Counted from the stretch's first letter, positions 3,994-37,415 are shown. The stretch: DNA of 64,000 nt from Bdellovibrionota bacterium (GCA_050952645.1 JBMNLI010000012.1:96001-160000), one strand, 5' to 3'. Notes: generated by a model not told the origin, from the letters alone. A program made the numbers and translations.

Positions 3994-5826
3994 ATGACTA
4001 ATTCTTTACTAGAACCGAACAAAGATATACTAGATCGCATTTCCCATTGTGTAATTACAGATGTCGGAAAAAAACGAGAGACTAATCAAGATAGTTTTAT
4101 CGCTGTCTGTGGCGAGAATTTTAAATTATTCGTCGTTTGTGATGGCATGGGTGGAACCGACGGTGGGGAGATAGCAGCAGGAATAACGATCTCATATTTA
4201 CAATCTGAACTTTCAGGAAAAAAAATAAATGATATAGAAGATGTTAAAGAGGTGGTGTTTTTAGCTAATAAGCACGTTTTCGATTATGGCGCTGAACATA
4301 AAGAGGTTCAAGGACTAGGAACTACCATTACGACTTTACTAGTAATGGCTAAAGGGTCTTGGATATTAAATGTAGGAGATTCTAGAGTTTATAAAATTGT
4401 AGCTAACTCCATGGAGCAAATAACGCAAGACGATACGGTTTTACAAGAGTTAATTAAGTCTGGTGCAGTATCTAAGGAAAAAGCTAAAAGCCACCCTATC
4501 GCTAATATGCTAACTAAAACCATAGGGCAAGGAGATAGCCTAGAGATAGAAAGTAAGAGAATAGGTTTTTTAGATGATAGCGAACTTTATCTACTTTGCT
4601 CAGATGGGCTATACAATATGCTCTCAGATGAGGAAATCTTAAAAATAATTAAAGAGAGTAGCCCTCAAGAGGCCGTAAAAAAATTAGTAGAAGAAGCGAA
4701 TGATAATGGGGGTGCCGATAATATTACAGTAATGATAGTAGGAACGTTTGAAGAAGAGCTTAATAATACTACTAATGTTGATAATGATTTTTCTTCTAAA
4801 GACAAGCCAAAAATAAAAAAGCCAAAGGAAATAGTAACTAGAATAAATTATAAGAATTTAAGTCAAAAAGTTTTTCAAGCAAAGCTAAATGAAGATGGTA
4901 ATGCTGAGCAAAAAAACGATGATTATAAAACTTCTCAAAATAATAAAAATATAGATAAAGAGAATATAGATAAAGAAAAACCTCGTGAAATTACTCAAAA
5001 AGATTTATATTTATCGAATACGGATTCCAAAAAATTTATTCGACTTTTTTTATTATCGCTTTCAATCATTTTATTATTAATTTTTATGCCTGCTAAAAAT
5101 AATAAAAACGCACCTAAGGAAAAAGAAAAAAAATTAGTGGGCATTATCGGTGATATAAAAGTAGTAGAGAAAGAATATAAATTTAAAATGAAAGATATAG
5201 AAAAAAAGGTTGATACAAATACCACAGTTAATTATATAAAAGTTAATTATACAGAAGAAGAAAAAAAAGCTTACGACGATATTTTAAATTTACTTCAAGA
5301 AAAAAAAGAACTATCTAAAAGATTTTTACAAAACGAGAAGAATATATTACTAACTTCGATTAAAGAAGCTGAGAGAAAAATAGAAAAACTTGCGAAAAAA
5401 GAAAAAGAACTCAGAGGCTATAATGGGCAAAGTCTGATAGATATCGCTAGCAAGATATCGCTAAAAGATAAGAAAAAAGGAAGTAGTGAAAATAATAATG
5501 AAAATAATGGCGTAAAAAAAGCGTTAGATGATTTTTTAAATTTTTCTTATAGCATTTTAGATAAAAACTTATCGCAAAAAGATTACGACAGTTTAATGAG
5601 TGCTAAAATTAAAGCTTTAAATGAACGAGTAGAAAAATACGTATATAATAATTTAATAAAGCTTAAAAAAAGTGTAAAAGAAACACAAGAAAAAATTTTA
5701 CTTAGTCGCCTTAATTTATCTCTAGTAAATTTAAAGTTAGAATACGTTCAAGTGCTACAAAGTGGCGATGAAGAAGCTCTTGAAAATTTTAAGTTAAAAA
5801 TAGAAGCTCTAAGAGAAAGGCTTTAA
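3994..5826 (+). CDS. PP2C-family Ser/Thr phosphatase with TM helix and C-terminal coiled coil
   Basis: TDVGKKRETNQD, VVCDGMGG, LNVGDSRVY, LLCSDGL, GGADNIT; TM at about aa 349-366. Confidence 0.9.
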   Translation: MTNSLLEPNKDILDRISHCVITDVGKKRETNQDSFIAVCGENFKLFVVCDGMGGTDGGEIAAGITISYLQSELSGKKINDIEDVKEVVFLANKHVFDYGAEHKEVQGLGTTITTLLVMAKGSWILNVGDSRVYKIVANSMEQITQDDTVLQELIKSGAVSKEKAKSHPIANMLTKTIGQGDSLEIESKRIGFLDDSELYLLCSDGLYNMLSDEEILKIIKESSPQEAVKKLVEEANDNGGADNITVMIVGTFEEELNNTTNVDNDFSSKDKPKIKKPKEIVTRINYKNLSQKVFQAKLNEDGNAEQKNDDYKTSQNNKNIDKENIDKEKPREITQKDLYLSNTDSKKFIRLFLLSLSIILLLIFMPAKNNKNAPKEKEKKLVGIIGDIKVVEKEYKFKMKDIEKKVDTNTTVNYIKVNYTEEEKKAYDDILNLLQEKKELSKRFLQNEKNILLTSIKEAERKIEKLAKKEKELRGYNGQSLIDIASKISLKDKKKGSSENNNENNGVKKALDDFLNFSYSILDKNLSQKDYDSLMSAKIKALNERVEKYVYNNLIKLKKSVKETQEKILLSRLNLSLVNLKLEYVQVLQSGDEEALENFKLKIEALRERL

Positions 5827-28810: not shown

Positions 28811-31111
28811 ATGGTAACTAAAAGATTAAAATTAGCTCTTTGGTGGGAAAGGATAGAAACTCCATTAAGGCTTGCACTATTTATTTTAGGAGCATCTCTA
28901 TTTGCTCTAATAGTATACTGGGTATATTGGCAAAGACCTGAGTTCGAGATCGAAAATTTTAGTAGCAACTTAACTTTCTTTATTCTAATCAATTTAAATA
29001 TCGCATTATTATTCGTTTTTGCTTTTCTAGTAGCGAGAAATATTGTAAAACTCGTTTTTGATAGAAGACGAAACATTTTAGGTTCAAAATTAAAACAAAA
29101 ATTAATTTTTGCCTTCGGTGGTTTAACTTTAGTCCCTACGATAATTATCTTCGTTCTTTCTAGTGGTATGCTTAGCCATTCGATGGAAGAAATTTTTTCT
29201 AATAATATTTTAGAAACTATAAGTAGTGCAAACGACCTAGCACAAAGTTATTGTGAGATTATAGAAAATAATTTTGAAAATATTAGCAAAAAAATTGAAA
29301 AGAAAATAAATGATTTACATGGCGCTAATAGTGCAAAAACAATAAATAAAAATATAATAGATAATAAAAATAAAGATAATAAAAATAATAGAAAAAACAA
29401 TAATAGAAAAAACATAGAGGAGATTTTTTCTAATGTAATTGCAAGCGAGAAGATTTTTAATATTTCATTAGTCGATAAAGATAGTAATATTATTGCTAAT
29501 AGTTCTAAAGAAAATATTTTTAAAAAATATAATTTGCCATTAGATTTTAAAGCTGTAAGTGAAACGATTAGCAAAGGAGTTTCGAGATCGGTTTTTAATA
29601 ATGTTAAAGAGGCTCAAGTTATAAGATTTTATTATCCTATAAAATTAAATGGAGTAAGTTATGGCATAGTTTTAATGGGGCTGTTAGATGAGAATATAAA
29701 TAAGGCGTTGCTCAAAGTAGAAGAAACGTATAATGAATATCAAAATTTACTATTTCATAAAAATCCAATTCGTTCGAGTTATTTGTTAACTCTTGCTATG
29801 ATGACTATGCTTATTTTATTTGCTGCTATTTGGATCGCATTTTATATCGCAAAAGAGATTACTATACCGATAGAAAAATTAGCTAATGCTACAAAGCAAG
29901 TAGCACTTGGAGATTACGATTGTTCTATAAAAATAATAGGGGATGATGAGCTTTCATATTTAAGCCGTTCATTTAACACGATGCTTTCCGATTTAAAGCA
30001 ATCGAAAAATGAAACTGAAAGACATAGGCTTTTTATGGAAACGGTTCTTTCAAATTTAGCGGTAGGAGTTATAACGCTAGACAAAAACAGGAAGCTTATA
30101 GCTGTAAACTCCGCAGCTAGCGATATTTTAAGTATAAAATCGGGAGTTCATGATGGGACTAAGTCGTTAAATGATATATTTGATAAACATATAGCAGATA
30201 AACTTATAAATTTATTAAACGATGCATCGCTTATTTTAGATGAGTTTAGCGCAGGTATGACCGATACTGAGTTTACTATAAGGGCAGAGGGGAGGGAATA
30301 TCAAATAGTATGCACGGCAGGAGCTATAGTCGATAATGTAGGAGATACGCTAGGAAGTGTTTTAATTTTTGATGACGTTACGGATTTATCTCATGCACAA
30401 AAAATGGCGGCTTGGAGAGAGGTTGCAAGACGTATAGCACATGAAATTAAAAACCCACTTACTCCTATAAAATTATCTGCACAGAGAATTAAAGGGAACG
30501 CCACAAAGGATAATCTTCCAAAGCTTTACGAAGAAAGCTCTACGATGATAGTTGAGCAGGTAGAAATTATTAAAAGACTTATAGATGAGTTTTCAAATTT
30601 TGCAAGAATGCCAACCTCTTCGTTTGAAAGGGTAGATGTAGTTTCATTTTTAAAAGAGATTATTAGTTCATTTTCAGAAAATAATAGTGATATAGAGTTT
30701 ATATCAGATTTTGAAGAAAACGAGTTAGAGGTTTCGATAGATGTAGGGCAGATGAGATTAGTTCTTTTAAACTTATTTGAAAATGCTATGCAAGCTTTAA
30801 GAAATGGGAAAGTAAGTAATCCTAAAATACACGTTAAACTATCTTATTTAAAAAAGATAAAATCTTTTTCCATAGAGGTAGCGGATAATGGTCCTGGAAT
30901 TTCCGATTTCGATAAGACGAGAATTTTTGAGCCTTATTTTACGACTAAAGAAACTGGCACTGGTTTAGGCTTAGCTATCGTTACCTCTGTAATCTCAGAC
31001 CATAGAGGACGAATAAGAACGTTTGATAATAAACCTAAAGGCGCTAAATTTATTATTACGCTTCCAATTTTTCAATCCGACGCTAAGACTAAGACTCAGA
31101 GATTTAATTAG
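28811..31111 (+). CDS. ntrY: NtrY-like sensor histidine kinase (HAMP-PAS-HisKA-HATPase)
   Basis: AWREVARRIAHEIKNPLTPIKLSAQR, EFSNFARMP, DNGPG, FEPYFTTK, GTGLGL. Confidence 0.88.
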   Translation: MVTKRLKLALWWERIETPLRLALFILGASLFALIVYWVYWQRPEFEIENFSSNLTFFILINLNIALLFVFAFLVARNIVKLVFDRRRNILGSKLKQKLIFAFGGLTLVPTIIIFVLSSGMLSHSMEEIFSNNILETISSANDLAQSYCEIIENNFENISKKIEKKINDLHGANSAKTINKNIIDNKNKDNKNNRKNNNRKNIEEIFSNVIASEKIFNISLVDKDSNIIANSSKENIFKKYNLPLDFKAVSETISKGVSRSVFNNVKEAQVIRFYYPIKLNGVSYGIVLMGLLDENINKALLKVEETYNEYQNLLFHKNPIRSSYLLTLAMMTMLILFAAIWIAFYIAKEITIPIEKLANATKQVALGDYDCSIKIIGDDELSYLSRSFNTMLSDLKQSKNETERHRLFMETVLSNLAVGVITLDKNRKLIAVNSAASDILSIKSGVHDGTKSLNDIFDKHIADKLINLLNDASLILDEFSAGMTDTEFTIRAEGREYQIVCTAGAIVDNVGDTLGSVLIFDDVTDLSHAQKMAAWREVARRIAHEIKNPLTPIKLSAQRIKGNATKDNLPKLYEESSTMIVEQVEIIKRLIDEFSNFARMPTSSFERVDVVSFLKEIISSFSENNSDIEFISDFEENELEVSIDVGQMRLVLLNLFENAMQALRNGKVSNPKIHVKLSYLKKIKSFSIEVADNGPGISDFDKTRIFEPYFTTKETGTGLGLAIVTSVISDHRGRIRTFDNKPKGAKFIITLPIFQSDAKTKTQRFN

Positions 31112-31126
31112 AGAAGATTTTTTTGG

Positions 31127-31388
31127 CTCTTCACGTTTTGAGTGGGTTAGAGTCTATCTTCTAATGTAAATTGACAAAATTATTTTATAAAACTGTTGTT
31201 GTTTTATTAAAATAATAGTTAATTTTATTGGTAAAAATAAACATTAGAGTTGTTAGGAAAAGTTATCCATAACTGATAGCAAGACCGAGCAATTAAAAGC
31301 TAAAGGTCAGGCTGTGGATAACTTTCACAAAGACCTTACTAACAAAAATGGTGTCTTATTTCTCTCAACCCACTTAAAATGTGAAGAA
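31127..31388. mobile_element. MITE-like element with terminal inverted repeats and an internal hairpin
   Basis: CTCTTCACGTTTTGAGTGGGTTAGAG ... CTCTCAACCCACTTAAAATGTGAAGA; same terminal motif as the dispersed family; no ORF. Confidence 0.6.
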
Positions 31389-31493
31389 GAGCTTAATTTA
31401 ATAATCCGTGAATCTATTTTTTATGTGATAGAAGGTCGTTTGATAATGCTCAAATATGTTTCTGATTGATTGTTAGTTAATTCAAAAAAATAG

Positions 31494-31524
31494 TTGACTA
31501 TATATATATATATATATATATAAT
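31494..31524 (+). promoter_or_regulatory. Sigma-70 promoter with (TA)12 tract, candidate phase-variable
   Basis: TTGACT (31494-99), 19-bp spacer, TATAAT (31519-24); (TA)12 spans 31499-31522. Confidence 0.7.
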
Positions 31525-31581
31525 TTTTTTGCTTGTATTAGAGTTAATAAAATTATTTTGAATTATATGGGAGAGAATATT

Positions 31582-31722
31582 ATGAATAGTAAGATATATG
31601 TAAGACCAGTAATTGTTGGGTGTTATGGTAAAAGTGGATGTTCAGTAGGAAATAAGTCTAATAAGACTGACAAAGATAACAATAAAGAAAGAAAAGACAA
31701 AAAAGATAATAATAAAAAATAA
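31582..31722 (+). CDS. Putative RiPP precursor peptide (46 aa, absent from the ORF track)
   Basis: MNSKIYVRPVIVGCYGKSGCSVGNKSNKTDKDNNKERKDKKDNNKK*. GGGAGAG RBS 6 nt upstream; YxxPxI leader motif; first ORF before rSAM/SPASM + RRE. Confidence 0.75.
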   Translation: MNSKIYVRPVIVGCYGKSGCSVGNKSNKTDKDNNKERKDKKDNNKK

Positions 31723-31974
31723 TAATATTTTTGCAACGAATTTTTTCCTATCAAATAAGGTGAACACTTCTTAATTAAGGTAAATTATTACGATAAGTTT
31801 TGCATTGAAATCTTTTTGATAAGAAGAATTTTTCTGTTATATGTTTTTGTGAATGAAGGAAAAATTTAGGTAATTATCATTAGTCAAGAAAATTTTTGTT
31901 TTTCTTATGCAAAACTAAGTTCTTTATTGTAATCAAGGTGTTTTAAAAAGAGCTTTGAAGAACTTTTCTGTTTT

Positions 31975-32994
31975 ATGAGTAAGTATAAACTGATGAGATT
32001 TGAAAATTTTAGATATTTAGACAGTTTTTACCCTTTTAAGTTGTCTTGGATGATTACAACACGGTGTAATATTAATTGTAATTTTTGCTTTCTTCCTTGT
32101 CTACTTAGGAAAGAAGAGATACATAGTATTCCAGTAAAAGATGTTTTGCAATGGTGTAAAAAGCATAAGATTTTTTCTTTAGAAGTTTTTGGTGGGGAGC
32201 CTTTTTTAGAGATTGATAGATTAATTGAGATAATAAAGAATACAAAAAAAGGAGAACCATATTTATCTAGAATTAGCACTAATGGCACGATTTACAACAA
32301 GAAAGTAGGGAAGCTACTCAGAGATTTGGAAAATTTTCAGCAGTTGCAGGTGAGTTTAGATGTTTCGGATAGTAATTCATATTTTGATATAAAAGGTAAA
32401 GATTATTTTGATAATGTTATAAACAATATCAAAAATTATGTTAGGGATAAAGTTCCTGTATCTCTAAGTGTTGTATTATCAACGCAAAATTTTCATATGA
32501 TAGTTGATTTAATTAAATTAGCAGAACAATTAGATGTAAAAAATATTAGTTTTGATGGGATGATGTGTAATAATGCTAATAGTGCCTATCATAATTGTCA
32601 TTTAACATATTTAGAAATGATTGAATTAAAAAACAAGCTAACAAATATGAAGAGTAGCAAAGTAAAGATAATATTGAATAATTCATATAATAGCAAAGGT
32701 CATAATTATAATAATTGTATGGCGGGTTTTACTGAAATGACTTTGCTTCCGAATGGCGATATTTATCCTTGTTCACTTTGCTTGTCAGATAACGATTTAA
32801 AGTTAGGTAGTATTTACAAAGGAATCGATAAGGAACGCAATGAAAAGCTGAAAAAATTTCTAAAGTATAGAGTATCTAGCAAGTGTCGCAATTGCGAGTT
32901 GCCATCTATTTGTGATGGTGCATGTAAACTTGTTCAACTGCAACGTGTTAAAAGTTTTTATAAAACCATAGGTTGTGATGATATTGGAAATTAA
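31975..32994 (+). CDS. Radical SAM/SPASM domain peptide maturase-like enzyme
   Basis: CNINCNFC (CxxxCxxC), FGGEPF, STNGT, QVSLD; SPASM CMAG...NGDIYPC...CRNC...CDGAC. Confidence 0.93.
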   Translation: MSKYKLMRFENFRYLDSFYPFKLSWMITTRCNINCNFCFLPCLLRKEEIHSIPVKDVLQWCKKHKIFSLEVFGGEPFLEIDRLIEIIKNTKKGEPYLSRISTNGTIYNKKVGKLLRDLENFQQLQVSLDVSDSNSYFDIKGKDYFDNVINNIKNYVRDKVPVSLSVVLSTQNFHMIVDLIKLAEQLDVKNISFDGMMCNNANSAYHNCHLTYLEMIELKNKLTNMKSSKVKIILNNSYNSKGHNYNNCMAGFTEMTLLPNGDIYPCSLCLSDNDLKLGSIYKGIDKERNEKLKKFLKYRVSSKCRNCELPSICDGACKLVQLQRVKSFYKTIGCDDIGN

Positions 32995-33184
32995 TACAAG
33001 TATTAAAATACGCGTGTTTAAAAAATTGGTATATATTTATATTCCACAAAATGATGCGATTTATGAGATGACAAATAATGATTGGAATAAAGTTAATTTA
33101 TTATACGGAGTTCCTATCAAAAAAAGTATTCTTAATTTTACAGAAAAAAAATTAGTTGAAATGAAAATTTTATTTTTAAAATGA
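32975..33184 (+). CDS. Small PqqD/RRE-like protein
   Basis: 69 aa with three beta-like segments then helices ending KLVEMKIL; overlaps both neighbours. Confidence 0.5.
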   Translation: MMILEINTSIKIRVFKKLVYIYIPQNDAIYEMTNNDWNKVNLLYGVPIKKSILNFTEKKLVEMKILFLK

Positions 33185-33912
33185 AAGATATAGAATTAAT
33201 CGAAATAAATTTAGGCATGTCCGATTGTCATTGTGTTGTGGATTCCAATTTTGACATAAAATTTAAACAACTTAAGATGATTTTTGAAAATTTACCTTGG
33301 AGTAATGCTGAAATTGGAATAGGTGGTCATCCATTTAGATATCCTTGGTGGAAAAGTATGCTATTTTTTTTATCAAATAGTGGTAGAAAGATTTATTTTG
33401 TAGATACTATTAACTTTTTGACTAAAGAAAAAATTGATGTAATAAACAGTTTTAATAATTTTCATTTGATTATTGAAGTAGAAAAACAAAAAGATTTAGA
33501 AGATATTCATAAAAATCAAATTAAGTATGAGGCTTTAATGTGTTCATTTAATAACATACAAAATATAATAATGAATGATAATATTGTAATAGAACAACCA
33601 GTAACTAATATCAATGCAATAATGGAAGAGTATGCAAAACAATTTTTCAAACATTATAAAAAAGATATTTGTAGGTTGAATGAACAAACTATTGTATGTG
33701 TTGCAATTGATGGTGATGTGTATCCTTGTGTTGCTTTGCAGCAAAAAACTTATTGTTTAGGCAATATATTTAATGATGATGAGAAAAAAATTAAAAAAGA
33801 ATATGGCTCGTTTATAAAAAAGATAAGTTGTAAATATTGTTGTCAAGGACGAAGTGTATCAAGATATAAAATTTTAAATTGTGATTTTTTATGTAACCAT
33901 AGAGAGATATGA
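33181..33912 (+). CDS. Degenerate radical SAM-like protein with SPASM/Twitch domain
   Basis: No CxxxCxxC (only DCHC) and GGHPF in place of GGEP; retains C...IDGDVYPC...LGNI...CKYCCQG...C. Confidence 0.75.
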   Translation: MKDIELIEINLGMSDCHCVVDSNFDIKFKQLKMIFENLPWSNAEIGIGGHPFRYPWWKSMLFFLSNSGRKIYFVDTINFLTKEKIDVINSFNNFHLIIEVEKQKDLEDIHKNQIKYEALMCSFNNIQNIIMNDNIVIEQPVTNINAIMEEYAKQFFKHYKKDICRLNEQTIVCVAIDGDVYPCVALQQKTYCLGNIFNDDEKKIKKEYGSFIKKISCKYCCQGRSVSRYKILNCDFLCNHREI

Positions 33913-34428
33913 ATGAATAATTTGTTTAGTAACGATAAAGATATAATTTATTTATTTGATGCAATAGATGAAAATGTATCCCATCAAATAATAAAAGAAA
34001 TAATTATAAAAAGCCAAATATCTAACAATATCTTTCTTTTTATCAATAGTCCAGGGGGAAGTGTAATAGATGCATTGGCAATATATGATATTATTCAATA
34101 TTATAAAGATAAAATTACTACTGTTGGGTTAGGTGTTGTTGGTAGTATTGCAACACTTTTGCTTTCTTCAGCAAGTTTTAAAAAGAGATATTTATTTAAT
34201 AATACTACAATTCATATACATTTGCCGTTTGGGGTTACTGAAATTGAGGAAAGCAAAAGCAACGAAGTAATCATGGAAGAATTAAGATTAGTAGAACTTG
34301 CCACTGGGTTATTTACGAAACATACTAATAGTAAATTAAACCTTGATAGGCTTGGAAAGCAAGAAAATTTAATATTCAATGCATATGATGCAGTAAATAA
34401 TTATGGGCTGGCAGACCATATTATTTAG
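33913..34428 (+). CDS. ClpP-like serine protease (S14)
   Basis: FINSPGGSVIDALAIYD, GVVGSIA (catalytic Ser position), IHIHLP (His), YGLADHII. The catalytic Asp position appears substituted (QENL). Confidence 0.85.
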   Translation: MNNLFSNDKDIIYLFDAIDENVSHQIIKEIIIKSQISNNIFLFINSPGGSVIDALAIYDIIQYYKDKITTVGLGVVGSIATLLLSSASFKKRYLFNNTTIHIHLPFGVTEIEESKSNEVIMEELRLVELATGLFTKHTNSKLNLDRLGKQENLIFNAYDAVNNYGLADHII

Positions 34429-34458
34429 TAGTTATTTAATTTTTAGGAAGGGTATAAA

Positions 34459-35481
34459 ATGTTTGAACAAGAAATAAGTATTGAGAAGAAAATTGATATG
34501 ATTATTTTAGAATATGTATCAAAAAATCTTTTAAAAAATAATAATGATATTAAAGCCGTGTTTCTTGTTGGTTCTGCCGCAAGAGGAGAGCTGTCAAGGA
34601 TATCAGATATTGATTTGTTGATAATTACAAATAAAAAACTTTCTGACGATCAGCAAGATAATATGCGTTCGGATGTTTATAAAGGATTGAGATTTTCTAT
34701 GCTCTATACTAATTTATCTTTATTGAAAGAGGGTGTAAGTCAAGAAATTCCTGCAACGATTACGTTCATTATTGATGCAAAGGTTATTTACGATCCTGAC
34801 GCTTTATTAAAAACTATAAAGTCACTTCTTAATGATTTTAAGTTGTCAAATAATTTAAAAGAAGAAATTATAAGTGCAGAAAACAGGTTAAGTATTTTAA
34901 AAGATGCAAGCTTAGAAAATCAAAATTTTAATATTTTAATGACATCAATAGATTTAGCGAGAGAGTTTTTATGTTTGAACAATGATCCTTATATGGCAGT
35001 TAAACATTTATATAAACATTTAAGCTTATATAATAATAGTTATGCTGAAAGTTTTAGAGAAATATGGAAATGTGAAGATGAATGCAAAGTAATTAAAATA
35101 TTTGAAAAACAAATTGCTAATTTAAATAAATTAAAGGATTGTAATCAATGCAAAAATAATAATATAAATATTATTCCAAGAATAGAAAATGCAGAAGAAG
35201 CTTTAAATACTGCAAAATATTTATTAAATAATAAAAATTTTGAAGCTGTGCCTATTGTGTTTTCTGAGACATACTATTTATATAGAGGTTTTATGGAATA
35301 TTTGGGGCATGATTTTGATATATTAACTTATGAAAATTTTTTTAGTCTTTTGAATATGGAATCTCCTAAATTGTTATTAAGTTTTAGTAAAATTTGGCAA
35401 TTTTTTGATCATATGAGTATTTTAAAAATTTTAAAAAAACAAATTGAATTTTTAAAAAATTTAAGTGGAATAATTTTATAA
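34459..35481 (+). CDS. Pol-beta superfamily (MNT-type) nucleotidyltransferase with helical/HEPN-like C-terminus
   Basis: VFLVGSAARGELSRISDIDLLII (GS...DxD); C-terminal ENAEEALNTAKYLL... resembles HEPN helix 1. Confidence 0.75.
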   Translation: MFEQEISIEKKIDMIILEYVSKNLLKNNNDIKAVFLVGSAARGELSRISDIDLLIITNKKLSDDQQDNMRSDVYKGLRFSMLYTNLSLLKEGVSQEIPATITFIIDAKVIYDPDALLKTIKSLLNDFKLSNNLKEEIISAENRLSILKDASLENQNFNILMTSIDLAREFLCLNNDPYMAVKHLYKHLSLYNNSYAESFREIWKCEDECKVIKIFEKQIANLNKLKDCNQCKNNNINIIPRIENAEEALNTAKYLLNNKNFEAVPIVFSETYYLYRGFMEYLGHDFDILTYENFFSLLNMESPKLLLSFSKIWQFFDHMSILKILKKQIEFLKNLSGIIL

Positions 35482-36522
35482 ATGTTAGTTTCATTAGTCG
35501 ATAAAAAATCTCAAAATACTATTTTAAATGGTGCATGTTATTCTTTAAAGGAATCAAACATTATATTTGATATAGGTCGTAGTTTTTATAAAAATGAAGA
35601 TTTTTATTTACAAATCAAAAATAATGAAAAGTTATTCGAACCACATTATAATCATTTTTCAAAAATAATAAATCTATTTATATCACATATACACGAGGAT
35701 CACTATGCTGGTATATTTAATATACCAAGTGATATTTTGATAAATTTATATATTGGAGAGGTTTCTTTTGATATTTTACAATACAAGGCACTCGAAATTG
35801 GCAAGCCTCTCCCCAGTTTTAATGAAGTTAATTTTTTTAAAAATAAAAATTTTGTTAATATAGAACACTGGAATATTATTCCTGTTTCAATTCCTCATAA
35901 TATAGTTGATACTTGGGGATTTGTTGTTAAAAGAAGTGGAAATGAAAATAAATTCATATATTCTCCTGATATAAGTGAATGTTTTTGGAATTATTTTAAT
36001 GTCCTAGAAAACGACACAGTTTTGATAGATATATTGCCGATGCTTCCAGATTTTATGTACAATAATGATTTAGATGCTATATCAAAATCTAAACAGAGAG
36101 AAATGGGATTAATATTATTTGTAGATTATGGTTGGGATTTTGATAGAATAAATTATTTTATGAATAATTATTTTTTTGAAAAGCGAGTTTTCTTCTCAAA
36201 AGAAATGTTTAATAATTCTAAAATAGTGAATTTTCAAAATAAAAGAAATTTTGATTTGCTAGATTTTTTTAATGCACAAGTATTGAGTGATGGAATTTAC
36301 ATTTGTTCAATTAGCGAATTATATGATGTTATTCTGAAGTACCCTAAATTAGAACTAAATGTAATATCAAATGTATTTGAATTAAGCATAAATAATAGAG
36401 ACATATTATCATTAACAAGTTATAAATTTTATAATTTTTTTAAAAGTGGACATTTACCTGCAAATAAAATAGAAGAATATAAAAGAACCCATCAAGGTGT
36501 TGATATAATAACCCATAATTAA
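35482..36522 (+). CDS. Metallo-beta-lactamase fold hydrolase (RNase J/beta-CASP-like)
   Basis: IIFDIG, ISHIHEDHYAG (HxHxDH), IPHNI, YSPD, C-terminal SGH. Confidence 0.82.
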   Translation: MLVSLVDKKSQNTILNGACYSLKESNIIFDIGRSFYKNEDFYLQIKNNEKLFEPHYNHFSKIINLFISHIHEDHYAGIFNIPSDILINLYIGEVSFDILQYKALEIGKPLPSFNEVNFFKNKNFVNIEHWNIIPVSIPHNIVDTWGFVVKRSGNENKFIYSPDISECFWNYFNVLENDTVLIDILPMLPDFMYNNDLDAISKSKQREMGLILFVDYGWDFDRINYFMNNYFFEKRVFFSKEMFNNSKIVNFQNKRNFDLLDFFNAQVLSDGIYICSISELYDVILKYPKLELNVISNVFELSINNRDILSLTSYKFYNFFKSGHLPANKIEEYKRTHQGVDIITHN

Positions 36523-36566: not shown

Positions 36567-37415
36567 TTATATTTTAAATTTAGCTTCTATAAGGCATTCT
36601 TTAAGTATGTTTGCTTTTTTAGAAAGCATTTTAAAGTCGTTATCGCTAATTAGCTTTTGCTTAAAAGATGTTTCTATAGTTTTTTCTAAACGCTCATAGA
36701 CAAATTTTGCTAGGTAAAATTTGTTGCAAACATTTTTAGAATGTTCGTATTTTAAAAGTCTTATTATACATATCTCTATGGCTATGCCATCAAATATTGA
36801 ACGAGAAAGAATTTTTCCTTTAAAATGTCGCCCCTCAAGAGTAGCATTTATAATCTCATCTGAAATTATAGGCTCATAAGTTCTTTTTTCGTTTAAAAAA
36901 GTATAAAAAGTATTTTGTTCAGGAAATTTTTGTAAGTTTGCTACTATATCTGAGTCTTCAACGGCTTGAAGCCCGAGTGTTGCAAACTTTTTTTCTTCTT
37001 CATTTAAAGATTGAAAGAATGGCTCATCTTCAATTTTAGATTGTGCCTCATGGAGCTTTACAAAAAGTAGAATATACTCATCATCGAAATTTTCATCTTC
37101 TATTAAAATTTGCTTTCCCATATCTCCATGGTTTAAATGTCTTTGAATTTCATTGTTTTTAAATTGATAAAATCTACCTATATCATGAAGTAGCGCTCCT
37201 ACTAAAAGCCTAGTTTGGTTTTCCTTAGAAAGAGTGTTAAGCTTTTCTTCATTTTGTATAAGATTTACCATGCACATATAAACATCGATAGAATGTGCAT
37301 ACTTTAAATTAAGCCAATCCATTTCTAACTTAGTTTTAGCTAGTAAAAATTGTTTATTAAAATGTTTTTGTAAAATTTTATAACTATCGATTATTAAATT
37401 ATCTGTAATATCCAT
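36567..37415 (-). CDS. HD-domain phosphohydrolase
   Basis: HSIDV, GALLHDIGRF, HGDMG, LHE, DSDIVAN. Confidence 0.88.
   Translation of the reverse strand: MDITDNLIIDSYKILQKHFNKQFLLAKTKLEMDWLNLKYAHSIDVYMCMVNLIQNEEKLNTLSKENQTRLLVGALLHDIGRFYQFKNNEIQRHLNHGDMGKQILIEDENFDDEYILLFVKLHEAQSKIEDEPFFQSLNEEEKKFATLGLQAVEDSDIVANLQKFPEQNTFYTFLNEKRTYEPIISDEIINATLEGRHFKGKILSRSIFDGIAIEICIIRLLKYEHSKNVCNKFYLAKFVYERLEKTIETSFKQKLISDNDFKMLSKKANILKECLIEAKFKI

Follow-up and report, generated by a model that had tools for sequence, protein, structure and literature searches.

A seven-gene radical SAM locus of a Bdellovibrionota bacterium as a candidate operon for the maturation of a ribosomal peptide

What is made by a compact block of overlapping genes, with a radical S-adenosylmethionine (rSAM) enzyme near its head, in a Bdellovibrionota bacterium? 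The block is located at positions 31494–36522 of a 64,000-nucleotide stretch of DNA (GCA_050952645.1 JBMNLI010000012.1:96001-160000), the whole of which is referred to below as the window. A description generated from the sequence alone, called here the sequence-only reading, had proposed a system for a peptide that is made on the ribosome and modified after translation (RiPP), composed of a small precursor, an rSAM/SPASM enzyme, a RiPP recognition element (RRE), a degenerate SPASM protein, a ClpP-like protease, a nucleotidyltransferase (NTase) and a metallo-beta-lactamase (MBL)-fold hydrolase. Radical-SAM RiPPs are a main source of new peptide chemistry, and the operon is a small one, with seven genes in 5 kb. 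Our analysis makes it rather probable that the locus is an operon gained by horizontal transfer, for the maturation of a ribosomal peptide of RiPP type outside the named families. The sequence-only reading stood where it saw a co-oriented block headed by a precursor peptide, and gave way where it likened the hydrolase to a component of pyrroloquinoline quinone (PQQ) biosynthesis.

A conserved unit headed by a precursor-like peptide

The open reading frames (ORFs) listed for the window include seven genes of a single orientation, on the + strand, between 31582 and 36522, overlapping or abutting as had been described. The gene for a 46-aa precursor-like peptide (31582–31722) is followed by those encoding an rSAM/SPASM peptide-maturase-like enzyme of 339 aa (31975–32994) and a 69-aa protein (32975–33184), which is placed in the RRE/PqqD slot by the position of its gene, overlapping both neighbours. 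The overlap with the rSAM gene is of 20 nt, and an ATGA overlap at 33181 joins the 69-aa ORF to that of a 243-aa protein of radical-SAM fold (33181–33912). The ORF of a truncated ClpP-like serine protease of 171 aa (33913–34428) directly abuts the latter, the ORF of a Pol-beta-type NTase of 340 aa (34459–35481) starts after a gap of 30 nt, and that of an MBL-fold metallo-hydrolase of 346 aa (35482–36522) abuts the NTase end at 35481.

In the ORF list, the small frame at the head of the block opens with a TTG at 31558 (54 aa) and ends at 31722. Its 46-aa form starts from an ATG at 31582, 6 nt downstream of a ribosome-binding site (RBS; GGGAGAG, 31569–31575), and consists of MNSKIYVRPVIVGCYGKSGC followed by a Lys/Asn/Asp-rich tail. 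The RBS and the conservation of the motif described below confirm the RBS-bearing ORF that the sequence-only reading had placed there. No Pfam family matched the 46-aa peptide.

A metagenome scan with the rSAM protein resulted in 80 loci, the best three of which were L008 (38% identity), L009 (31%) and L010 (30%). Peptides aligned from the four loci read KIYVRPVIVG-CYGKSGC in the window, KLYVRPIVVG-CYGKDGC in L008, KVYTNPDMVGIYTACYGKDGC in L009 and KIYTHPEMINIYTACFGKDGC in L010. Residues K4, Y6, P9, C14, G16, K17, G19 and C20 are invariant, giving the pattern K-x-Y-x-x-P ... C-[Y/F]-G-K-x-G-C, and a C-x3-[D/S] reading is common to all four peptides. The C-terminal tails vary in length and charge: the two bacterial peptides have basic ones, L009 and L010 acidic ones. 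In a six-frame scan of 103 records, C[YFW]GK.GC was found only in the window, in its own-genome copy (L001) and in L008, L009 and L010, in an ORF directly upstream of the rSAM gene at each locus found. Among the metagenome loci, the motif occupied that place in all three with an rSAM enzyme at least 30% identical to that of the window, and in 0 of the 77 others. The absence of a conserved upstream peptide from homologous rSAM loci, which would have spoken against the sequence-only reading, was thus not observed at the close loci (3/3 carry it). These data show a small conserved precursor gene adjoining a maturase gene, the arrangement of a RiPP-type system.

The N-terminal part of the peptide carries YVRPVI in the window and YVRPIV in L008, both of which fit Y-x-x-P-x-[I/V]. 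According to the available text of PMC13381572, [Y/W]xxPx[L/V/I/F/A] is the recognition motif of the discrete RREs of lasso peptides, and its YxxP portion is essential for LppB binding. This correspondence between the window and L008 sequences and the lasso RRE motif led us to read residues 1–13 as the probable leader. If so, the locus defines a new precursor family, with a YxxP leader and a C-Ar-G-K-x-G-C motif.

Conservation extends to the rest of the block. L008, whose proteins are named by public sources as belonging to Candidatus Parcubacteria / Patescibacteria bacterium, carries all seven genes within 4.4 kb, in the same order and with the same overlaps, with the MBL gene inverted; identities with the window proteins are 27–41%. 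Two further sets are likely co-located, as judged by equal longest-contig values only: the rSAM protein P0002, the MBL protein P0008 and the SPASM-only protein P0053 (5344 bp each), and the MBL protein P0009 and the SPASM-only protein P0050 (8333 bp each). Altogether, the seven genes constitute one conserved unit. An unrelated second radical-SAM-like ORF (CYGNCSFC; 4834–5142) is also present in L008 beside the cluster, running off the contig end.

A different variant, archaeal-looking by gene content, occupies L009 (2827–7920) and L010 (1–4860). It consists of the peptide, the rSAM enzyme, a PqqD protein and a 744–745-aa protein with PPDK_N and PEP-utilizers domains, and sits between the genes for S-adenosylmethionine decarboxylase and spermidine synthase, the latter of which starts before the PPDK-like gene has ended. 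This variant may be linked to polyamine metabolism. L009 and L010 are devoid of the ClpP-like, NTase, MBL and SPASM-only proteins, so that the expected co-occurrence of ClpP, NTase and MBL genes with peptide and rSAM enzyme holds in L008 and fails for all three in the archaeal-looking loci. As far as sequence comparison can tell, the core common to the bacterial and archaeal-looking variants is the peptide, the rSAM enzyme and the small protein of the PqqD slot. An ORF of 445 aa upstream of the L009 cluster (1453–2790) has CxxC...CxxC in its C-terminal part and looks TnpB/IS605-like by eye.

The families of the unit are rare. A word-indexed search of 5.8 billion clusters returned two rSAM relatives at E <1e-30, P0002 (54% identity) and P0003 (32%). 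Among 1.84 billion representatives, 5 were related to the NTase at E<=1e-10, and the MBL and SPASM-only profiles collected 5 and 11 proteins, respectively. In the genomes of 185,579 species, each represented once, an rSAM pattern scan gave 62 pattern matches and 0 relatives, and an MBL alignment scan gave 8 distant MBL matches (23–54%, short segments), none of them a relative of the system. Closer to the host, the rSAM query found distant paralogues only (<=28% identity) among 40 relatives, and the SPASM-only profile matched the own genome alone among 124 genomes of the phylum.

The cluster is absent from the same site in a genome of the same genus (G001): of the genes that border it in the window, the one for a histidine kinase there lies next to those for the HD and RNA-methyltransferase proteins, with ~0.8 kb of repeat-bearing DNA in between. 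The GC content is 0.22–0.29 across the cluster vs 0.28–0.34 in the flanks. These observations indicate that the operon has been horizontally acquired. We considered the HD-domain gene at 36567–37415 as an eighth member and rejected it: G001 keeps this gene in place without the cluster, and it therefore belongs to the backbone. The empty site of G001 (L102, contig C69, 286–610) shows a ~150-bp unit in tandem, seen as near-identical ORF translations.

Proteins of the unit and the nearest known systems

In the 339-aa enzyme, Pfam recognised the Radical_SAM (PF04055, 55 bits) and SPASM (PF13186, 27 bits) domains, both above the cut-offs. Residues C31, C35, C38, C248, C266, C304 and C307 are invariant, and both the CxxxCxxC motif and the auxiliary-cluster cysteines of rSAM/SPASM maturases are present. 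The first of these motifs, CNINCNFC, occupies residues 31–38, too near the N terminus for an RRE domain to precede it. The relatives of known structure closest to the enzyme are CteB (5wgg; E 2.6e-23), SuiB (E 1.2e-19), SkfB and anSME, and the best NCBIfam match is PapB (NF047865), with 103.4 bits vs a cut-off of 340. By its sequence features, the protein is best described as a full SPASM-type peptide-maturase relative that does not carry its own RRE domain. Its true start may be the second Met, as in P0002.

The likeness to the PapB, CteB, SkfB and SuiB maturases thus covers the rSAM/SPASM architecture, the CxxxCxxC motif and the full set of SPASM cysteines, whereas the sub-threshold PapB score and the missing N-terminal RRE domain separate the window enzyme from the PapB type. 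The peptide differs as well, in that it has one two-Cys motif and not the repeated Cys motifs of ranthipeptide- or sactipeptide-type precursors; its C-x3-[D/S] reading resembles the Cx3D sites of PapB substrates. A ClpP-like protease, an NTase, a beta-CASP MBL protein and a cluster-less rSAM paralogue are not known as parts of the PapB, CteB, SkfB or SuiB systems.

The 243-aa protein matched SPASM alone in Pfam (22.5 bits vs a cut-off of 21.5). In an alignment of 11 members, six cysteines of the C-terminal part (C164, C183, C217, C220, C221 and C238) are invariant and the motif GIGGxPLRF is kept, whereas neither an N-terminal Cys triad nor a CxxxCxxC is conserved. Its model (predicted local distance difference test, pLDDT, 85) was matched by Foldseek to SuiB, CteB, BtrN and anSME, with E values from 3e-7 to 1e-4. 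The alignment and the model together describe a radical-SAM-fold protein without CxxxCxxC and with a SPASM/twitch-like C-terminal domain, in agreement with the degenerate SPASM protein of the sequence-only reading. Since it does not have CxxxCxxC, it would be unable to cleave SAM in the usual way.

The ClpP-like protein (PF00574, 103 bits) was aligned with a canonical ClpP that its genome encodes on another contig. Its S78, H103 and D168 fall on the triad positions (Ser, His and Asp) of the canonical enzyme, so that the catalytic triad is kept, as expected for the protease that had been proposed. The canonical ClpP equivalog model TIGR00493 gave 78.8 bits vs a cut-off of 308.6, and the window protein has ~16 N-terminal residues fewer than the canonical one. 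The N-terminal region of ClpP forms axial loops.

For the NTase, Pfam matches to Polbeta (PF18765) and NTP_transf_2 (PF01909) were of ~36 bits each, and G38, S39, D50 and D52, the GS...DxD ligands, are invariant. The closest solved relative is HalB (E 2.4e-7 over ~95 residues), followed by kanamycin NTase. The protein has a helical C-terminal domain that looks duplicated in part: in the C-terminal 110 aa (35146–35478), the end of the helical domain before them recurs (E 2e-5 over 31 aa). Relatives are mostly of 218–237 aa; P0051, with 337 aa, is a long form like that of the window.

The MBL protein remained below the Pfam cut-off for Lactamase_B_2 (20.2 vs 27 bits). In 5 sequences, however, H69, H71, D73 and H74 (HxHxDH), H139, D163 and H324 are invariant, and the model (pLDDT 80) was matched by Foldseek to RNase J1/J2, CPSF-73 and INTS11 (E 1.7e-13 to 1e-10, TMq ~0.6–0.68). 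The top 50 matches were RNase J, CPSF73, INTS11 or Cas14-complex chains, and the structural neighbours in the Atlas were of the RMMBL, Beta-Casp or Apyc1 families. The MBL fold that had been proposed is therefore upheld despite the sub-threshold Pfam score, with an architecture of the RNase J/CPSF73 (beta-CASP) type, including the CASP-like alpha/beta insertion. NCBIfam gave only weak RNase J/Z matches (RnjA, 30.6 bits vs 820), the Beta-Casp and RMMBL Pfam families (PF10996 and PF07521) did not match, and the protein has 346 aa vs 404–616 residues in the matched beta-CASP chains. The ligands and the predicted fold are thus those of beta-CASP proteins, and the sequence falls outside the RNase J family. 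As judged from the alignments, the ClpP-like, NTase and MBL proteins keep their triad or metal ligands.

These assignments also bear on the comparison with PQQ biosynthesis, which the sequence-only reading had drawn. Both systems have a peptide, an rSAM/SPASM enzyme, a small protein in the PqqD slot, a protease and an MBL-fold protein. On the other hand, the PqqE model (TIGR02109) gave 62 bits vs 381 and the window set has no PqqC. The E-x3-Y motif of PqqA is not present in the window peptide. The analogy with PqqB has to be abandoned, the MBL protein being RNase J-like in its beta-CASP fold and PqqB being absent from the Foldseek matches listed. The scores for mycofactocin (MftC, TIGR03962; 75.2 bits vs 265) and SCIFF (maturase TIGR03974; 50.3 bits vs 425, with no PF13165 match in the peptide) place the locus outside both. 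GeoRSP shares the combination of an rSAM/SPASM enzyme with a second SPASM-bearing protein and differs in its scores, which were of 52.9 bits vs 400 for TIGR04303 and 13.6 vs 300 for TIGR04304.

Resemblance of another kind is found with paeninodin-type lasso and LPP clusters, which, in the available text of PMC13381572 and PMC6993621, combine a YxxPx[hydrophobic] leader with a discrete RRE, an unusual dedicated peptidase and an NTP-transferase/kinase pair. In LPP and paeninodin clusters, the two members of the pair are an NTP transferase and an HprK-like kinase (PMC13381572, section 6), and PsmN is an NTase-fold tailoring enzyme in RiPPs according to the accessible part of PMC6993621, so that the tailoring of RiPPs by enzymes of the NTase fold has precedents. 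The window set differs by the absence of a lasso cyclase, a B2 peptidase, an HprK kinase, a SipW-type peptidase and an MsbA exporter, and the lasso/LPP systems by the absence of an rSAM enzyme; the term "radical SAM" occurs 0 times in the available text of PMC13381572.

All of the proteins score below the cut-offs of the named NCBIfam system models, and the accessory set was not found in the curated family libraries (Pfam, NCBIfam and PADLOC). A description of the gene set was likewise not found by full-text searches of the open-access literature, in the portions that these searches expose. The view that the combination belongs to no named RiPP class is consistent with these results, and the family-library tests revealed no already described family that the gene set matches.

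Proposed pathway and competing explanations

We propose the following pathway, in which the cross-link, the cleavage and the nucleotidylation are all inferred from the genes alone. The 69-aa protein would act as a discrete RRE, binding the N-terminal YxxPx[I/V] leader. The rSAM/SPASM enzyme would then modify the invariant C-Ar-G-K-x-G-C, which would most likely acquire a Cys thioether or else a C-C cross-link, with the cluster-less rSAM-fold protein as a putative non-catalytic partner or Fe-S electron relay. The ClpP-like protease, which does not have the N-terminal axial-loop residues, may trim the leader, the variable charged tail or both. The HalB/ANT-like NTase would add a nucleotidyl, phosphodiester-linked group to the peptide, and the beta-CASP MBL protein would act as a phosphodiesterase that processes or removes this group. 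In the available text of a review (PMC13434031), HalB is described as priming synthesis on a tyrosine hydroxyl, and a Tyr of the peptide might be O-nucleotidylated by such a mechanism. Each variant of the locus has an ATP-using transferase, either the pol-beta NTase or the PPDK-like protein, which suggests a phosphoryl-type group on the peptide. An NTase side by side with an RNase J-like hydrolase is also suggestive of phosphodiester-linked tailoring of a ribosomal peptide, a new chemistry if so. No exporter or immunity gene was found among the ORFs of the cluster and island in the window and L008, and the product may consequently act inside the cell. The presence of the core in a lineage named Parcubacteria and in archaeal-looking loci, wedged between polyamine genes in the latter, may be a sign that the module is old and mobile and that its role is cellular, not antibiotic.

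Several observations weigh against this pathway. Full synteny was seen in DNA at two loci only, the window and L008. The archaeal-looking loci dispense with the ClpP-like, NTase, MBL and SPASM-only proteins, and these four are therefore not required by the peptide/rSAM core. Tyr15 is replaced by Phe in L010, so that the aromatic hydroxyl at this position is not a universal acceptor. By analogy with LPP precursors, the core could lie in the variable tail, with the whole conserved part of the peptide serving as leader. The modelled beta-CASP fold and the HalB-like NTase point to nucleic-acid rather than peptide chemistry. The 69-aa protein, finally, had 0 matches to Pfam or NCBIfam models, including those of RRE and PqqD, and was linked to PqqD proteins weakly at best: hhalign found nothing with two of them (E 0.58) and gave E 0.0042 over 43 columns with four.

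The RRE assigned to this 69-aa protein in the sequence-only reading was, in the absence of a family match, an inference and not an observation. It keeps weak support, from the gene slot, which holds a true PqqD protein in both L009 and L010 (Pfam E 2e-9), and from the four-protein alignment. The L008 counterpart has 76 aa, 27% identity and the same gene overlaps. A profile search of the PDB with this pair gave chance-level matches (E 0.19 and 1.7), an Atlas search with the 69-aa protein gave no usable match, and a predicted complex of the protein with the peptide, scoring 0.02, returned no verdict and is not used as evidence. Near distant rSAM loci, 121 small ORFs were extracted; Pfam identified PqqD in 2 of the 68 that were scanned, a sample that leaves out most ORFs under ~65 aa and duplicates from near-identical loci.

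The nucleic-acid character of the last two enzymes leads to an alternative that we regard as unlikely, although worth serious attention, namely a composite locus. A minimal RiPP core, with the peptide, the rSAM enzyme, the small protein, the SPASM-only protein and perhaps the ClpP-like protease, would lie beside an independent NTase and beta-CASP nuclease pair that does not touch the peptide; this pair would make and degrade a nucleotide or oligonucleotide signal, or act on RNA, in defence, toxin-antitoxin or signalling functions. HalB, of the Hailong system, is indeed the best solved relative of the NTase and similar in size to the 218–237-aa members of its family, and the PADLOC candidate-system NTase models PDC-S09 and PDC-M05A match weakly. 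The MBL model is RNase J/CPSF73-like, with Apyc1-type phosphodiesterases among its Atlas neighbours, and the archaeal-looking variant is devoid of both enzymes; in addition, the MBL gene of L008 is on the opposite strand, and the cluster is an island adjoining a repeat element. Yet the similarity to HalB covers the N-terminal catalytic part only, its model (NF051895) reaches 24.9 bits vs a cut-off of 190, and no ORF of the island is a candidate for HalA, the channel or membrane partner; the MBL and SPASM-only proteins have no PADLOC match. The NTase and MBL genes also stay with the rSAM set across 30–40% identity and a strand inversion, probably on the 5344-bp and 8333-bp contigs too; both families are as rare as that of the rSAM enzyme, and in the window the MBL gene abuts the NTase gene, which starts 30 nt after that of the ClpP-like protein in one transcription direction. 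These arguments lead us to retain a single operon in which the two enzymes would act on the peptide.

If the product stays in the cell, it might also be an intracellular cofactor or metabolite in the manner of PQQ or mycofactocin, that is, an excised cross-linked core, redox-active or metal-binding. The absence of transporter and immunity genes from the island agrees with this, as does a core motif that shows no hypervariability and stays invariant in bacterial and archaeal-looking loci alike, with hosts that include a lineage named Parcubacteria by public sources. The succession of peptide, rSAM/SPASM enzyme, RRE, protease and tailoring enzymes parallels the logic of the PQQ and mycofactocin genes. 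The PqqE and MftC scores given above are nevertheless far below their cut-offs, the MBL protein is not PqqB-like, no dependent oxidoreductase gene is linked, and the patchy, island-like distribution is unlike that of a core cofactor, all of which leaves this explanation with a small chance, if anything below that of the composite locus. A further idea, which we hold to be more doubtful again and which is built by analogy with HalB, is that of a conjugate of the peptide with a nucleotide or oligonucleotide. The NTase would prime on a hydroxyl of the cross-linked peptide, the candidate primer being the invariant Tyr6 or a core residue, as HalB uses its own tyrosine; the MBL protein would trim the nucleic-acid part and the ClpP-like protease the peptide. 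If true, the locus would represent a ribosomal "nucleopeptide" class with radical SAM chemistry, distributed in a lineage named Parcubacteria and one anaerobic-digester bacterium, with a kinase-bearing cousin in archaeal-looking loci.

It could finally be argued that the small ORF is a chance frame and the genes a decaying or non-functional remnant, given that AT-rich DNA yields many short ORFs, that the peptide tail is of low complexity and that 252 bp separate the peptide and rSAM genes. This is very improbable: the peptide recurs at 4 loci, where 8 of its residues never vary, and has an RBS; the six enzymes are all intact and retain conserved catalytic residues; and, among the contig pieces listed from inside the cluster in the runs of four further studies, 28/28 are identical to the window (222 further pieces lie outside this listing). 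The data favour the horizontally acquired, peptide-maturing operon over such decay.

Promoter region and flanking repeats

Position 31494 is non-coding and corresponds to the first base of a promoter-like element on the + strand (31494–31524), read from the sequence as TTGACT, then (AT)10, then TATAAT, and presumed to serve the peptide gene. Counted to TATATA the spacer has 17 nt, and counted to TATAAT it has 19. At the equivalent relative position, L008 has TTGACA followed, after 17–19 nt, by TATATATAAT. The TTGACT/TATAAT element at 31494 is absent from the list of a consensus promoter scan, which returned 59 promoter-like sites in total, not above the 50.6 +/- 8.7 of shuffled sequences.

The (AT)10 tract (31500–31519) stands exactly between the -35-like TTGACT and the -10-like TATAAT, and a shorter TA run is found at the equivalent promoter position of L008 (208–217). 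A dinucleotide repeat in the promoter spacer of the peptide gene could act as a slippage-driven expression switch. Metagenome contigs break at 31491–31535, around this spacer.

Between the peptide and rSAM genes, 252 bp are non-coding in the window (31723–31974) vs 6 nt in L008. The terminator scan found 0 terminators, with no terminator-like hairpin in 31723–31974, and an Rfam scan of the whole window gave 0 matches.

Upstream of the island, an intergenic repeat of ~270 bp (31120–31388), resembling a miniature inverted-repeat transposable element (MITE) with terminal inverted ends, separates it from the histidine kinase gene. Sequencing depth in other runs is raised over 31100–31286. The own genome (G000) contains ~10 long copies (77–92% identity) and >30 short end fragments of the repeat. 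One copy (G000:C10:341122-341344) lies ~1.5 kb from a SPASM-domain gene (C10:342811-342993), a proximity that is probably a coincidence.

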